Positions 8,458-31,958 of a stretch of 64,000 nucleotides of DNA are shown here, in pieces. The number at the start of each line of letters is the position of its first letter. Position 1 is the first letter of the stretch. The stretch spans positions 3,323-67,322 of the forward strand of contig JAFQEG010000041.1 of assembly GCA_017399145.1 (NCBI GenBank), in the 5' to 3' direction. Origin of the DNA: Clostridia bacterium (GTDB taxonomy: Bacteria > Bacillota > Clostridia > Oscillospirales > CAG-272). The notes under the pieces were generated by a model. That model worked only from the letters and a program-made list of their open reading frames with translations, was not told the DNA's origin and ran no database searches. A program made the translations under genes and the position numbers.

Positions 8458-9345
8458 ATGTTTAGAAGTATGACAGCCTTTGGCAGAGCACGTGAAACCG
8501 TAAATGCCAAGGATATAGTTGCAGAAATAAAATCTGTCAACAACAGGTACTATGATTGTACTGTAAAAATCACAAGACTCTATAGCTTCCTAGAGGACAA
8601 AATCAAGCAATATCTTCAATCTAAGGGTATTTCTCGTGGTAAGGTTGAGGTTTATATTGGTATTGATTTGCTTGAGCAACAGGGTGTTGAAATTCAACTT
8701 GACACTGCTTACGCAAAATCCTACATAGACGCCCTTTATAAGCTTCGTGATACCTTCGACCTAAAGGACGATATCACCGTTTCAAGAATTGCCTCGAACA
8801 AGGAAATTTTTGTAACCAAAAAGCCTGAGGACGATATGGAAAAGGACTGGGCAGATATCAAGGTCGTTTTAGATAAGGCGCTTGAAAGCTTCCTTGAAAG
8901 AAGAGAGGCAGAGGGCGAAAACCTATATCGCAATATCGCAGAAAAGATTGATAACATAAAGGGCTACCTAAAGATTATCGAAAAGAATTCCGAGTCCGAT
9001 ATTAAGGGCTATGCCTCAAAGCTTGAGGAAAGAATTTTAAAATTCCTAGGGGACAACTCAATACAAATTGACGAGCAAAGAATTTTAACCGAGGTTGCAG
9101 TTTTTGCCGACAAGGTTGCAATTGACGAGGAGCTTGTTAGATTAAGCAGTCACTTTGACGCCTTTGAGGAAATAGTTAAGTCGAACGAGCCTGCAGGAAG
9201 AAAGCTTGACTTTTTGCTTCAGGAAATGAACAGAGAAACTAATACAATCGGGTCAAAGGCTTCAAATGCAGATACAGCACACATTGTAGTAAATATTAAG
9301 AATGAGCTTGAAAAGATAAGAGAGCAAATTCAAAATATAGAATAG
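8458..9345 (+). CDS. yloC: YicC/YloC family protein
   Basis: MFRSMTAFGRA start with an AAGGA RBS 8 nt upstream (alternative ATG at 8449). C-terminal motif FLLQEMNRETNTIGSK. Position matches B. subtilis synteny. Confidence 0.85.
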   Translation: MFRSMTAFGRARETVNAKDIVAEIKSVNNRYYDCTVKITRLYSFLEDKIKQYLQSKGISRGKVEVYIGIDLLEQQGVEIQLDTAYAKSYIDALYKLRDTFDLKDDITVSRIASNKEIFVTKKPEDDMEKDWADIKVVLDKALESFLERREAEGENLYRNIAEKIDNIKGYLKIIEKNSESDIKGYASKLEERILKFLGDNSIQIDEQRILTEVAVFADKVAIDEELVRLSSHFDAFEEIVKSNEPAGRKLDFLLQEMNRETNTIGSKASNADTAHIVVNIKNELEKIREQIQNIE

Positions 9346-9356
9346 CGGGTGTTGAA

Positions 9357-9602
9357 ATGAAATTTGTAGATATTGGCGCTGGAAATATGGTCCTTGACCA
9401 AAGAATAGTCGCCCTAGTTACCCCCGACTCAGCCCCTGCTAAAAGAATTGTGGGCGAGGCAAAGGACAAGGGCAGAATAATTGACTGCACAGGAGGAAGA
9501 AGGACAAAGACGGTAATTATAACTGATTCCGACCACGTTATTTTATCCTACCTGTCAAGTGAAGCACTAGGTGAAAGACTTAATTTGGATAAAAAGGACT
9601 AA
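9357..9602 (+). CDS. remA: RemA/DUF370 family regulator
   Basis: NMVLDQRIVALVTPDSAPAKRIV and IDCTGGRRTKTVIITDSDHVILS are typical of RemA (YlzA). Lies between yloC and gmk. Confidence 0.88.
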   Translation: MKFVDIGAGNMVLDQRIVALVTPDSAPAKRIVGEAKDKGRIIDCTGGRRTKTVIITDSDHVILSYLSSEALGERLNLDKKD

Positions 9603-9614
9603 TGGAGGTATAAA

Positions 9615-10265
9615 ATGGCACAGGAAAAAGGAAGAATATTTATAGTGTCTGGACCTGCTGGTAGTGGTAAGGGCACAGTAGTTAAGCTTCTTGCAGAAAA
9701 TTACGATAGCCTAAACGTTGCAATCTCTGCAACCACAAGAAAGCCTCGACCTGGTGAGGTGGATGGCGTAAGCTATTATTTCATTTCCAAGGAGGAATTT
9801 GATAAAAGAGTTGGAAATGGTGAATTTTTGGAGTACGCATGCTATTCCTCAAACTACTATGGCACTCTCAAAAGCGAGGTTGACAGAATTGTAGATTTAG
9901 GAAGCGACGTTATTCTTGAAATTGAGGTTGTTGGCGCAATGAACGTAGTTAACACCTATCCAAACGCAATTACAATTATGCTAACCCCACCAGATAAGGA
10001 CGTTTTGGAAAAGAGACTTCGTGGAAGAAACACCGAACAGGAGGCAGAAATCCAAAAGAGGCTGGCAAGGGCTAAGGAAGAAATAATGGAGTTGCCAAAA
10101 TATAACTATTCCGTTATCAATTACGACGGCAAAATAGACGAATGTGCAAACGAGGTTTATTCAATCGTTGAAGCGATTCGTAAGGGTACAGATGAGGCAA
10201 GACAAGAAGTTGAACATCTTGAAACCAAAAACACAAAAGCAATTATTGAAAAATTTCGCAATTAA
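9615..10265 (+). CDS. gmk: Guanylate kinase
   Basis: P-loop GPAGSGKGT, motif TTRKPRPGEVDGVSYYF, and synteny. Confidence 0.93.
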   Translation: MAQEKGRIFIVSGPAGSGKGTVVKLLAENYDSLNVAISATTRKPRPGEVDGVSYYFISKEEFDKRVGNGEFLEYACYSSNYYGTLKSEVDRIVDLGSDVILEIEVVGAMNVVNTYPNAITIMLTPPDKDVLEKRLRGRNTEQEAEIQKRLARAKEEIMELPKYNYSVINYDGKIDECANEVYSIVEAIRKGTDEARQEVEHLETKNTKAIIEKFRN

Positions 10266-29507: not shown

Positions 29508-29540
29508 AAAAATCCGTGTGAATTTCACACGGATTTTTTT
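29508..29540. terminator. Bidirectional terminator; left copy of a 33-bp exact direct repeat
   Basis: AAAAATCCGTGTGAATTTCACACGGATTTTTTT, identical to 31959-31991. Serves DUF1846 (+) and the XRE gene (-). Confidence 0.9.
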
Positions 29541-29826
29541 ATTGATATTTTTTAATTATGCTTTTTAGGTCCTTGAGCATTGAAAGGTCGTTTTGACTAA
29601 GTCTTGAGTATTCATTAAGGCAGAGAAGACTGTCGGCACTAAGATTTAATATTTCACATATTCTTTTCAGTTGCTCTAAGCTAGGCTCTTGAATATCTCT
29701 TTCGATTTTCGAATATCCAGATTGGCTCATTGGAATTTTTTCGGCAACGTATTCCTGAGAAAAATCTAAATCCTCACGTGCATTTCGTATTTTTTCACCG
29801 ATTTTCAACAAACTCACCACCTTCAA
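29539..29826 (-). CDS. XRE-family helix-turn-helix transcriptional regulator
   Basis: IGEKIRNAREDLDFSQEYVAEKIPMSQSGYSKIERD is a classic Cro/CI-type HTH. The start is non-ATG. The listed TTG is at 29826, but the TTG at 29808 behind AAGGTGG is more likely. Confidence 0.85.
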   Translation of the reverse strand: MKVVSLLKIGEKIRNAREDLDFSQEYVAEKIPMSQSGYSKIERDIQEPSLEQLKRICEILNLSADSLLCLNEYSRLSQNDLSMLKDLKSIIKKYQ

Positions 29827-29832
29827 TAGAAG

Positions 29833-29884
29833 TATATCATTTTCGAATAAAAATATTGACTTTTATTCGAAAATGATATATAAT
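29833..29884. promoter_or_regulatory. Perfect 20-bp inverted repeat (operator) overlapping a consensus promoter
   Basis: TATATCATTTTCGAATAAAA (29833-29852), 8-nt spacer, TTTTATTCGAAAATGATATA (29861-29880). The -35 TTGACT is at 29856-29861 and the -10 TATAAT at 29879-29884, with a 17-nt spacer. Confidence 0.8.
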
Positions 29885-29954
29885 TAAGGCGAATATAATA
29901 AAATAGAATAATTTTATTTAAAATATTCAATTTTAGAAAAGGAGAAGGTGAATA

Positions 29955-30686
29955 GTGGATAATAATCATGAGATCATTTCACATATTTCCATAAAAAGCA
30001 AATATGTAAATACAGTTGAATTATATTTTGGAGATAAAGTAGATAAAGATTTTTTAGCCTACATTAGAGACTACAAAAATTTAAATGTAAATGTAGTGAA
30101 AGAAGTGGGCGAAATGAAAGAGTATAATATAACATTCTGTTATTCAGGAGTTAATTATCAGGTCCCATATGGCAAAGATGGAGAAGAGCTTGAAATAAAT
30201 CACAAATATTTTGCTGGACAAAAGGAGGCGAACTTCAAAGTTCCGTTTGGTCAACACTACAAGGATAAGCAAAAATCTGAGGTTGATAGCGGACGAAGAA
30301 AAGCGTTAGGACGTGTGAGATTAGCACCCATAACCTTCGGTATATGCCTTCCTATTGTAGTGATATTTTGGATAATGGCATTGACTATAGCGTCCTCAAT
30401 TGACCCAAGTAAAATGACGTCGCACGCTTCAATGATTATGGAAGGTGGATTTGTGGCAAGCTTTTTTATAGCAATTGCAGGCTTGGCTTTTACAATAAGA
30501 AGTGTTAAAGCAAGAAAGAGAATTGAAAAGGTAGCTAATGATTTGAAAAATCAAATAGACAATCAGGTTGACATAACCACATATAATTTACATAGCATAG
30601 GTGGATATAGTAGATTGTCTGCAATTGCTAACGTTATATCAGTAATTATTTCTATTGTTGTATTTATAGTGATTAAATCAATTTAA
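29955..30686 (+). CDS. Membrane protein, unknown function (soluble ~115-aa N-domain plus 3 TM helices)
   Basis: GGAGAAGG RBS, 5 nt, then GTG at 29955. TM segments are ITFGICLPIVVIFWIMALTIA, GGFVASFFIAIAGLAFTI and AIANVISVIISIVVFIVI. Confidence 0.6.
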   Translation: MDNNHEIISHISIKSKYVNTVELYFGDKVDKDFLAYIRDYKNLNVNVVKEVGEMKEYNITFCYSGVNYQVPYGKDGEELEINHKYFAGQKEANFKVPFGQHYKDKQKSEVDSGRRKALGRVRLAPITFGICLPIVVIFWIMALTIASSIDPSKMTSHASMIMEGGFVASFFIAIAGLAFTIRSVKARKRIEKVANDLKNQIDNQVDITTYNLHSIGGYSRLSAIANVISVIISIVVFIVIKSI

Positions 30687-30710
30687 TATTTTCAAAAGGA
30701 GAAAAATAAT

Positions 30711-31958
30711 ATGGCATTTTGTTCAAATTGTGGTGCTGAGGTTTTTGGAAAATTCTGCTCTAATTGTGGAAACAATTGCGGCAATGAGCAAGATCTAGTA
30801 AGGTCTCAAGAAGGAAGACAAAATGAAAATATCAAGGAAACTATTAACAAGCTTTATACATTAAGAGCAGGTATTTCTTGCTCAGTGCAAGAAAAGGAAA
30901 AATACGAAAAAATCAGGGATAATATAAAAGTATGTATAGATAATACAGAAAAAGAAATAAAGGAAAAAGAGGGGGAAGTGTTCGATAATAAAGGTTATAT
31001 TTTGTCTAGAAAAATGATTTCTGCCAAAAATCCCTCGGAAAAACTAAAAAAATTGCAGGATAGAATTGAAGGCTATGAAAAAGAAGCAGAAAGATACAAT
31101 AAAATAACTATTACACTTTATGTTATAGCAGGTATACTTGTTGCTTTTGCTGCGTTTATTATGTTGGGAGGATACATGGTGTTTATGCCTCGATCTGGTG
31201 GTGAGCATTGGCTTATCATAATTCCTTGTGCTATTGTAGCTGCGATTGTAGGATATACCGGTATGCTAAAATTTTTACCGAAAAAAGAACAAGCTCAAAA
31301 TAATGCATATAATCTCAAAAGCGGAGAAGAATATAAGAAAATTTCAAAAGAAATTAGTATAGCCTCTAATGCAAAAAATGATATTAGCTATGCGGAAAAT
31401 AGTATAAGAGAGCTTGAGAATCAATTGTCTGTCTTGAATGCATCAAAATCAAAGGAATGTGAAAGATTAAAGCGCGAGCCTATTCCACATTTAATATGTG
31501 CAAACGGAATTTATGATGTACTAGTTAGAGAATATTCAGCGCTTATCGACACCCGTGACTGGGCAAATCTTGACCTTGTAATTTTCTATTTTGAAACAGG
31601 CAGAGCAAAAAGCATGCAAGAGGCTTTACAGCTAGTTGACAGACAAAGACAAAACGATAGAATTGTAGAGGCAATAAATGAAGCATCTTATCAAATTTGC
31701 AATACAATCAATGCAGGAATTGAGCATATACAAAATGTAGTAGTAGGCTGTGCGAAAATTCTATCAACTCAGCTTGATGAAATCGCAAGTCAGCAAAAAG
31801 CATTGGGTAGAGAAATTTCCAACCTACAAATATCTGCAAGTACTATGCAAAACGCACTAAAGGCAAAATCAAACGTATCAAGTAATCAATTAGCAGAGGA
31901 TATTCATCAAATGCGCATTTACGCAGAAAATGAAGCTATAAGAAAACGCAATTCGTAA
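30711..31958 (+). CDS. Zinc-ribbon / coiled-coil / 2-TM protein, unknown function
   Basis: AAAGGAGAAAA RBS. N-terminal CSNCGAEVFGKFCSNCG (CxxC-x8-CxxC), a Lys/Glu-rich coiled coil, a TM hairpin (ITLYVIAGILVAFAAFIMLGGY and WLIIIPCAIVAAIVGYTGML), then a ~220-aa helical C-domain. Confidence 0.65.
   Translation: MAFCSNCGAEVFGKFCSNCGNNCGNEQDLVRSQEGRQNENIKETINKLYTLRAGISCSVQEKEKYEKIRDNIKVCIDNTEKEIKEKEGEVFDNKGYILSRKMISAKNPSEKLKKLQDRIEGYEKEAERYNKITITLYVIAGILVAFAAFIMLGGYMVFMPRSGGEHWLIIIPCAIVAAIVGYTGMLKFLPKKEQAQNNAYNLKSGEEYKKISKEISIASNAKNDISYAENSIRELENQLSVLNASKSKECERLKREPIPHLICANGIYDVLVREYSALIDTRDWANLDLVIFYFETGRAKSMQEALQLVDRQRQNDRIVEAINEASYQICNTINAGIEHIQNVVVGCAKILSTQLDEIASQQKALGREISNLQISASTMQNALKAKSNVSSNQLAEDIHQMRIYAENEAIRKRNS

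Follow-up and report, generated by a model that had tools for sequence, protein, structure and literature searches.

The islet between DUF1846 and recG

The locus analysed here, on contig JAFQEG010000041.1, is an islet in a gut Clostridia genome: a 2.45-kb strain-variable insert that encodes a small repressor of the XRE type, an orphan membrane protein (gene 1) and a second membrane protein (gene 2) that represents a large family. Coordinates are positions in the window, the whole 64-kb stretch of DNA under study (64,000 nt), and L-numbers denote the related loci that were compared with it. The anatomy set out in the original prediction, an earlier annotation of this DNA, was recovered in every part (three genes, a zinc ribbon, transmembrane (TM) segments, a gap of 24 nt, ribosome-binding sites (RBSs) and an operator over the promoter), at the coordinates given below and in the next section.

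29508..29540, no strand assigned: left direct repeat of 33 nt, a bidirectional intrinsic-terminator hairpin (AAAAATCCGTGTGAATTTCACACGGATTTTTTT) that ends DUF1846 (+) and XRE (-)
29539..29826, minus strand: XRE, 95 aa, HTH_3 domain (E=1e-14)
29833..29880, no strand assigned: putative operator, an inverted repeat whose 20-nt arms match perfectly and are 8 nt apart (TATATCATTTTCGAATAAAA / TTTTATTCGAAAATGATATA)
29856..29884, plus strand: sigma-70-type promoter of gene 1 and gene 2, TTGACT-17-TATAAT, 11/12 positions matching
29955..30686, plus strand: gene 1, 243 aa, GTG start
30711..31958, plus strand: gene 2, 415 aa
31959..31991, no strand assigned: right direct repeat of 33 nt, starting 1 nt past the stop codon of gene 2 and used by the convergent recG as well

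The two 33-nt repeats are 100% identical, have a terminator-like score, lie 2451 nt apart and are the only two copies in the window. The DNA between them extends from the stop codon of XRE to the stop codon of gene 2. GC content is 0.327 in the module and 0.393 in the window, and GC at third codon positions is 0.24-0.27 compared with 0.35-0.37 in the flanks. We conclude that 29541-31958 represents an accessory cassette, a discrete unit that was inserted at a bidirectional terminator between the core genes DUF1846 and recG. The order PFK-DUF1846-[XRE-gene 1-gene 2]-recG-ROK is shared with L001/L010 and L002, which come from other species (synonymous divergence, dS, of ~1). At L055, where DUF1846 is 82% identical, DUF1846 and recG are separated by an 88-bp gap with one terminator, representing the empty site. 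L135 comes from the same species as the window (RecG 99.7% and DUF1846 98.8% identical, dS 0.06) and has at this position (L135:807-3145) two tandem 385-aa gene 1-like paralogues with a mutual identity of 34%, and neither XRE nor gene 2. The first paralogue begins 16 nt past the DUF1846 stop codon, and only the right-hand copy of the 33-nt repeat is present. The DUF1846-recG site is a hotspot for cassette exchange, and the islet-like location that had been predicted is borne out by the empty site, the alternative cassette, the lower GC and the flanking repeats. The L135 insert is also apparently flanked by a short AACAAAA duplication.

Since the dS of gene 2 (1.0-1.08) matches that of recG (1.07-1.14), the cassette has been inherited vertically together with its flanks in three species. 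Both membrane protein genes are real, with ratios of nonsynonymous to synonymous divergence (dN/dS) against the orthologues of two other species of 0.12-0.18 for gene 2 and 0.14-0.25 for gene 1. The flanking genes have values of 0.03-0.07, and gene 1 and the TM/middle region of gene 2 evolve 3-5x faster. Positive selection on the cassette genes was not detected at the whole-gene level.

The GTG start codon of gene 1 is corroborated by the L001 orthologue, which starts with ATG. Gene 1 and gene 2 are separated by 24 nt (30687-30710), and AGGAG is found 8-9 nt 5' of both start codons. The RBS regions at 29932-29946 and 30689-30703 form a 15-nt direct repeat, 87% identical (TTTAGAAAAGGAGAA / TTTTCAAAAGGAGAA), on either side of gene 1. 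The repeat may reflect an insertion of gene 1 downstream of the module promoter and ahead of gene 2, in which the RBS was duplicated, or it may equally be mere Shine-Dalgarno similarity. A promoter-like, near-consensus site inside gene 2 (31636-31663, TTGACA-16-TAGAAT, 11/12 matches) is probably due to chance in AT-rich DNA.

The XRE protein is a member of HTH_3 (PF01381; 54.8 bits against a cut-off of 23) and comprises a bare domain of ~90-95 aa that lacks a sensor domain. Identity to the L001 orthologue is 93%, with a dN/dS of 0.04. The arms of the inverted repeat (29833-29852 and 29861-29880) centre on the -35 box and extend to the -10 box, and the operator is kept in L001 with one mismatch. 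The half-site is found at a single locus in the window, where 0.12 matches would be expected by chance, so no wider regulon is visible. The geometry of operator and promoter suggests that XRE represses the gene 1-gene 2 promoter and, in addition, its own gene.

Gene 2, its family and gene 1

The gene 2 protein is built from a zinc ribbon, a helix with an LYxLRAGIS motif, a coiled coil, a TM hairpin and a helical C-terminal domain (C-domain), which are encoded as follows.

30720..30767, plus strand: zinc ribbon CxxC-x8-CxxC, residues 4-19, from sequence
30852..30878, plus strand: N-terminal motif LYTLRAGIS, residues 48-56
31098..31277, plus strand: TM hairpin, approximately residues 130-189, from hydropathy
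31482..31955, plus strand: helical C-domain, residues 258-415, conserved, dN/dS 0.03-0.04

The N-terminus reads MAFC-SN-C-GAEVFGKF-C-SN-C, with the cysteines in the arrangement C4-x2-C7-x8-C16-x2-C19. Since the ribbon is present in 33 of the 156 full-length family representatives, and a Prok-RING_1 domain stands in its place in P0010 and P0018, it must be regarded as accessory rather than as part of the family core, and the weight that the original prediction had placed on it was not justified. The LYxLRAGIS motif was found in 131 of the same 156 representatives; residues L48, Y49, L51, R52, A53, G54 and S56 are invariant across 34 sequences. The second block of invariant columns in the family alignment lies in the C-domain (D283-W-x-N-L-D-L-V-I-F-Y-x-E-T-G-R-A...E-A-L-Q-L-V-D-R-Q) and is separated from the first by the variable coiled-coil/TM region. 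Residues 126-257 (TM/middle) are the fastest-evolving part of the protein (dN/dS 0.21-0.26). The extreme C-terminus, ...(R/K)RNS (residues 412-415, 31944-31955), is kept in most close relatives and could be a docking or degradation tag.

The hydrophobic segments of gene 2 (130-161 and 162-189) are adjacent, and since there are two TM helices, both termini would be cytoplasmic. The AlphaFold2 (AF2) model is all-helical, with a mean predicted local distance difference test score (pLDDT) of 79.6 and helices at 41-105, 108-151, 167-204, 206-255 and 302-371. The protein may thus be pictured as anchored by a TM hairpin, its two ends lying in the cytoplasm, and as forming a long helical stalk of >100 Å, in which the invariant LYxLRAGIS and DWxNLDLxIxYxETGRA blocks would meet at a membrane-distal tip beside the optional zinc ribbon.

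A word-indexed search of 5.8 billion proteins returned 45 close relatives of gene 2, and the few that are named are 'zinc ribbon domain-containing' or 'hypothetical' proteins from metagenome-assembled genomes (MAGs) of Clostridia. When a profile of the C-domain (258-415) was compared with 1.84 billion representatives, 956 clusters were matched at E<=1e-3 and 844 at E<=1e-10; the best 150 matches are all proteins of ~350-460 aa with the domain at the C-terminus. The gene 2 family is therefore large and undescribed, and has no Pfam or NCBIfam model. Its ~950 clusters at 50% identity are confined to uncultured animal-gut Clostridia and Bacilli, and the invariant polar motif invites biochemistry. 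Two dispersed family paralogues are present in at least six MAGs (L010/L011, L021/L022, L035/L042, L039/L041, L012/L050 and L034/L054). In one further case the family gene is duplicated in tandem within one MAG (L029:7095-8411 and 8503-9657).

Gene 2 gave no significant match in Pfam, NCBIfam, PADLOC or PHROG (in PHROG only at E>0.008), and PDB sequence searches with whole-protein and C-domain profiles returned nothing but TM or coiled-coil noise. Foldseek comparison of the AF2 model with PDB and BFVD produced generic coiled coils and no PDB match at E<=1e-3; the top matches were long helical bundles such as chemoreceptor cytoplasmic domains (2ch7 and 3zx6), with target-normalised TM-scores of 0.47-0.48 and E ~1e-2. 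A literature search on zinc ribbon, XRE, membrane and anti-phage terms found nothing relevant. One candidate, SLATT_1, was matched by residues 113-204 with E=5.7e-4 and 19.8 bits, below the cut-off of 41, and in 2 of 34 members; it was treated as compositional and rejected.

Gene 1 has an N-terminal region of ~117 aa followed by hydrophobic segments at ~118-152, 158-184 and 218-243 (from hydropathy), and the positive-inside rule suggests an N-in topology. Only 3-4 homologues were found among the 5.8 billion proteins, a profile query (which returned 4 proteins) included, and all belong to this lineage. The protein is 53-58% identical to its orthologues, whose flanking proteins are 89-97% identical. 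The long form of 385 aa has ~140 additional residues within the N-domain. Nothing above threshold was found for gene 1 in Pfam, NCBIfam, PADLOC or PHROGs, and its AF2 model (pLDDT 59, from a 4-sequence alignment) was poor and unfit for a fold search. The earlier statement that the two membrane proteins belong to no characterised family therefore stands after searches of Pfam, NCBIfam, PADLOC, PHROG and PDB. The description of the two genes as a pair does not: gene 1 was present at no other gene 2 locus compared, and gene 1-like genes also exist apart from XRE and gene 2, as in L135. Gene 1 and gene 2 are no conserved pair. We propose that the cassette consists of two independent parts, a widespread divergent module of an HTH protein and gene 2, and a lineage-restricted gene 1 that is wedged between the promoter of this module and gene 2.

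Repressors and leader RNAs at the family loci

The context of the family was sampled at 45 loci from GTDB species representatives, together with loci from metagenome assemblies. The hosts are animal-gut MAGs of Clostridia (Candidatus Scatosoma, Caccosoma, Christensenellaceae) and Candidatus Coproplasma, and some are Bacilli, either Acholeplasmatales or Erysipelotrichaceae. When 388 neighbouring proteins were clustered, a single family recurred across unrelated loci, a small XRE-type helix-turn-helix (HTH) protein. A dedicated search with a hidden Markov model placed it divergently upstream of the family gene in 22/49 loci, with 27 HTH matches overall in 657 kb of family loci. These proteins have 66-99 aa and no ligand or sensor domain, and both their subtype (HTH_3 or HTH_26) and the operator vary by lineage; for example, L006-L009 have 66-aa HTH_26 proteins with two ACATTATATAATGT palindromes. 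The XRE control put forward in the original prediction is consequently supported both by the operator over the promoter and by the small HTH protein as the sole conserved neighbour of the gene 2 family. The other 27 of the 49 loci have no HTH protein at all.

These observations bear on the possibility that the gene 2 protein responds to a cue from the membrane or from outside the cell by sequestering or inactivating the HTH protein, with SdpI-SdpR and CylR1-CylR2 as precedents, so that the module would be a self-contained regulatory switch. Such a role would suit HTH proteins that have no sensor of their own and for which the family membrane protein is the sole conserved neighbour, and the invariant polar residues proposed to lie at the tip (D283, D288, E295, R298, E304 and D310) would suit a protein-binding surface. 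However, the HTH subtypes are unrelated and their operators differ, yet the tip is invariant, and the operator half-site is found at this locus only in the window. Furthermore, since the HTH protein is absent from 27/49 loci, many of which have an RNA leader instead, it behaves as an exchangeable regulator and not as a specific ligand. We consider a switch of this kind to be quite improbable.

Many of the loci that lack the HTH protein, in GC-richer lineages, have in common a leader of ~165 nt, located between the start codon and a TTGCAA...TATACT promoter. In it, a long hairpin in three parts (P1 of 11 bp, a P2 that varies and an apex that is conserved) is joined by a conserved linker to a terminator hairpin that has a U-run. 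With a covariance model, R1, the leader was located 5' of 13 family genes and of one Band_7_1 SPFH gene.

L016:496-649, leader of a family gene
L019:7580-7743, leader of a family gene
L021:2683-2849, leader of a family gene
L022:3816-3969, leader of a family gene
L023:7561-7730, leader of a family gene
L028:7033-7200, leader of a family gene
L033:1393-1557, leader of a family gene
L036:1566-1730, leader of a family gene
L037:4501-4665, leader of a family gene
L041:6927-7093, leader of a family gene
L042:7226-7389, leader of a family gene
L045:2621-2784, leader of a family gene
L050:7021-7204, leader of a family gene
L025:16103-16260, leader 5' of the Band_7_1 SPFH gene (46.3 bits, E ~1e-8; Pfam match of the gene 3e-33)

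In the 14 sequences, which were aligned by fitting to the R1 model and hence in a way that favours the structure, 97.8% of cells pair and 29/43 pairs are changed on both sides, values reached by 0/500 shuffles. The covariation score was 0.535, compared with 0.05-0.11 in registers slid by 1-3 columns, and de novo analysis of 9 leader sequences with MAFFT/RNAalifold recovered 10 compensatory pairs. A pseudoknot could form through the complementary segments GUAUCC and GGGAUAC, which are invariant. Searches of Rfam 15 with the L041 and L005 leaders matched no family, the best matches of the former being miRNA-precursor-like hairpins with 23 bits compared with 119 bits. We regard the leader as a candidate new riboswitch or attenuator, whose ligand or partner would show what the gene 2 family responds to.

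No hidden HTH open reading frames were found in the repeat-to-gene gaps of the loci lacking an HTH protein. A sensitive covariance search of the same loci gave three borderline matches in consistent positions, at L025:7808-7978 (E=0.0065), L005:5749-5929 (E=0.22) and L044:3928-4083 (E=0.31). None of the three was counted, and their positions suggest diverged leaders. With an HTH protein or a leader at 34/49 loci (L045, which has both, being counted once), the gene 2 family would have two interchangeable off-switches, a private HTH repressor or a leader RNA.

Two further observations were made upstream of family genes. The region L005:5645-6000 (= L011), 5' of P0012, the second family paralogue in a close relative (RGIG4648), has no HTH gene and comprises a leader of ~350 nt in an R1-like layout, whose long stem (CGCCAAACAAACTGA / TCAGAGTTTGTTTGGCG) is accompanied by a terminator-like hairpin; the match to R1 was borderline (13.2 bits, E=0.22). 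At approximately L016:930-1230, a GC-rich tandem array with a period of ~36 nt (..CCCCTGTCATTTCGAGCGTAGCGCAGCGGCAAAG..) lies downstream of the leader RNA at 496-649 and directly upstream of the family gene.

Neighbourhoods, mobility and a possible role of the cassette

The flanks of the family loci consist of housekeeping genes. Among 128 neighbours (positions +/-3 at ~44 loci) PADLOC identified no defence system; its matches were PcrA/UvrD helicases, in pcrA-ligA operons, and ABC/SMC-type ATPases. The matches labelled 'GajB' were rejected, being PcrA/UvrD beside LigA. The same scan contained no SMODS, SLOG or cyclase genes. No integrase or transposase recurred among the family neighbours and the cassette itself encodes none. 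Genes of the psp type were not found in the family neighbourhoods, nor did PspA, PspC or Band_7 recur among the neighbours. No homologue was found in IMG/VR (2.9 million viral contigs), INPHARED (50,697 phage records) or PLSDB (72,556 plasmids), and the flanks of ~49 family loci contained no phage genes.

Some lineages show additional features next to the module. A small conserved protein of 125 aa with no Pfam match is encoded directly upstream at L012:2950-3327 and L015:6478-6852, and another of 133-151 aa, also with no Pfam match, is encoded upstream and adjoins the pcrA-ligA operon at L049:6695-7150, L051:6627-7028 and L052:5551-5961. Three 66-nt tandem repeats lie downstream of the module at L048:9613-9810.

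The nature of XRE and the divergent layout, which resembles a genetic switch, might suggest a decayed lysogeny switch of a prophage, or a type II toxin-antitoxin system with XRE as the antitoxin. XRE matches the phage repressor profiles phrog_8 and phrog_3 (E ~1e-13) and is also RstR-like. Its matches in PADLOC, PHROG and NCBIfam, which include the PADLOC models Control_protein (E=3e-8) and HTH_VI, are generic HTH matches. However, genes 1 and 2 have no phage homologue, phage genes were lacking at the ~49 loci, and the cassette stops exactly at two stop codons. In addition, the HTH gene is divergent rather than co-transcribed, is missing from 27/49 loci, and no toxin domain was detected. Both proposals are largely refuted and we consider them extremely unlikely. 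The housekeeping flanks and the lack of homologues in the viral and phage sets also speak against a prophage exclusion gene, as raised in the original prediction.

Two-copy repeats of 28-77 nt were found around the module in six further independent locus groups.

L006:5597-5633/7341-7377, direct repeat around the module, terminator hairpin
L008:5608-5635/7469-7496, direct repeat around the module, terminator hairpin
L031:4496-4531/6249-6284, 36 nt, part of a terminator
L032:6939-6969/8497-8527, 31 nt, perfect, taking in the 3' end of the neighbouring gene
L041:6683-6714/8714-8745, 32 nt, enclosing gene 2 and the RNA leader
L042:6952-7028/8549-8625, at least 77 nt, enclosing gene 2 and the RNA leader
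L048:7420-7468/9267-9315, 49 nt direct repeat

Counting L006/L008 once and leaving out L021 and L027 as non-specific (multi-copy REP-like repeats), 7 of 47 independent modules were bracketed by a two-copy repeat, compared with a repeat of >=24 nt at 5 of 494 gene-boundary controls (runs of 1-3 consecutive genes spanning 1-3 kb elsewhere in the same loci; Fisher p=1.4e-5). Four of the five repeat-bearing control segments came from one locus, and among random segments the count was 10/1704. The repeats of L006/L007/L009 and of L008 are terminator hairpins of 28-37 nt in independent assemblies, and between L006 and L008 both copies are altered together. An assembly artefact was considered and is unlikely, as the L006/L007 repeats recur in independent assemblies and the two terminator-repeat copies of L001 have different loop sequences. 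Since the repeats are locus-specific and vary in length, they look like target duplications and not like a common att site. It is conceivable, although doubtful at present, that the HTH-gene 2 unit is a mobile cassette lacking a recombinase that inserts into terminators or the 3' ends of genes and leaves unusually long target duplications, 28-77 nt and variable in size. It would carry a new membrane-tethered helical effector, under the control of either a private repressor or an undescribed, riboswitch-like leader that SPFH genes share. Gut Firmicutes would then have a new self-regulated accessory system for membrane stress or conflict. Repeat-bracketed loci with no recombinase, together with one core site that holds different cassettes in near-identical strains, represent an unexplained route of gene gain and loss.

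Mobility of this kind would also fit an anti-phage, abortive-infection or exclusion cassette, in which gene 2, with or without gene 1, would be a membrane effector silenced by XRE and released on infection. This is the candidate defence, exclusion or toxin-like role put forward in the original prediction. It is consistent with a strain-variable islet that holds different cassettes at one site within a species, with the excess of flanking repeats over controls, and with the low GC, the dedicated repressor and the presence of two paralogues in six or more MAGs. That gene 1 and the TM/middle region evolve 3-5x faster than the flanks fits as well. Against this, neither gene 1 nor gene 2 matched a PADLOC family at E<=1, the SLATT_1 match was sub-threshold, and the expected enrichment of defence genes near homologues was not found among the 128 neighbours, which also lacked a recurrent integrase or transposase. 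The searched viral, phage and plasmid sets contained no homologue, and purifying selection, together with dS values that match those of the flanks in three species, indicates long vertical retention. The original prediction had itself named homologues in housekeeping contexts as evidence against a defence role, and these are the contexts in which the family was found. The defence reading is thus weakened, and we now rate it as unlikely, although cassette-like mobility and tight gating would fit a role in conflict. On the tests available, the defence label cannot be upheld, and the locus as first described would be an ordinary repressor with hypothetical membrane proteins.

As a weak preference, and tentatively, we propose instead that gene 2 encodes a tightly gated, membrane-tethered cytoplasmic scaffold or sensor with a role in membrane stress or homeostasis. 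The HTH protein would bind the 20-nt inverted repeat over the -35 to -10 region, hold gene 1 and gene 2 off, and probably repress its own gene too. Since expression of gene 2 is presumably costly, it would have to be conditional. The membrane-stress role is favoured because the leader is common to the family and an SPFH gene of the YdjI/SamI type, because the neighbourhoods are housekeeping ones and because the cassette has been retained vertically for long under purifying selection.

Several points weigh against this proposal. Binding of XRE to the inverted repeat is predicted from the sequence, and the packing of the invariant motifs at the tip was deduced from helix lengths rather than from coordinates. 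The link to membrane stress consists of one extra leader copy (L025), the architecture and the context, and neither the sequence nor the fold searches gave an informative homology that would fix the function of gene 2. Finally, mobility within flanking repeats, presence and absence within a species, low GC, paralogues and a dedicated repressor are typical of conflict genes.

In B. subtilis, SPFH proteins of the YdjI/SamI type tether PspA to the membrane (PMC8581546; bioRxiv 10.64898/2026.02.06.704340). The PspA-SamGHI (YdjFGHI) module includes a Zn-ribbon membrane protein, YdjG/SamG (PMC9239133), a second membrane protein, an SPFH protein with Band_7_1 and, on the cytoplasmic side of the membrane, an ESCRT-III protein with long helices (PMC8581546, PMC9239133, bioRxiv 10.64898/2026.02.06.704340). 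The cassette resembles it in having a Zn-ribbon membrane protein and a second membrane protein, and the family leader also precedes a Band_7_1 gene. However, genes 1 and 2 match none of PspA, Band_7 and TF_Zn_Ribbon, and the link between the two systems is a single shared regulatory element.

The SLATT proteins of CBASS and related systems also have a two-TM hairpin after a helix, but the conserved part of the gene 2 family is the C-domain and not the TM region. Similarly, the cytoplasmic domains of methyl-accepting chemoreceptors have the shape proposed for the gene 2 protein, a stalk of long hairpin helices that is anchored in the membrane and conserved at its distal tip, whereas gene 2 has no MCPsignal Pfam match and the similarity is one of generic coiled-coil geometry; SMC arms and the helices of Tc toxins and ClyA-type alpha-pore-forming toxins were likewise among its Foldseek matches.

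With respect to regulation, the SdpI-SdpR and CylR1-CylR2 dyads are those in which a membrane protein controls a small HTH repressor. They share with the module a small HTH protein with no sensor and a membrane protein as its partner, but here the HTH protein is interchangeable and often missing, and the genes are divergent rather than co-transcribed. TetR-TetA units and the small XRE-type C proteins of restriction-modification systems also resemble the module in layout, with a small HTH protein, a palindromic operator over the promoter of the divergent gene and a regulator that travels with its target; presumably, uncontrolled expression of the divergently transcribed target gene is harmful. 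Unlike TetR, XRE has no ligand-binding domain, and unlike restriction-modification systems, the cassette has neither a restriction enzyme nor a methylase; the regulated product here is a helical membrane protein. The theme of the locus is familiar, that of an accessory membrane-protein cassette that regulates itself, and the protein family on which it is built is undescribed.

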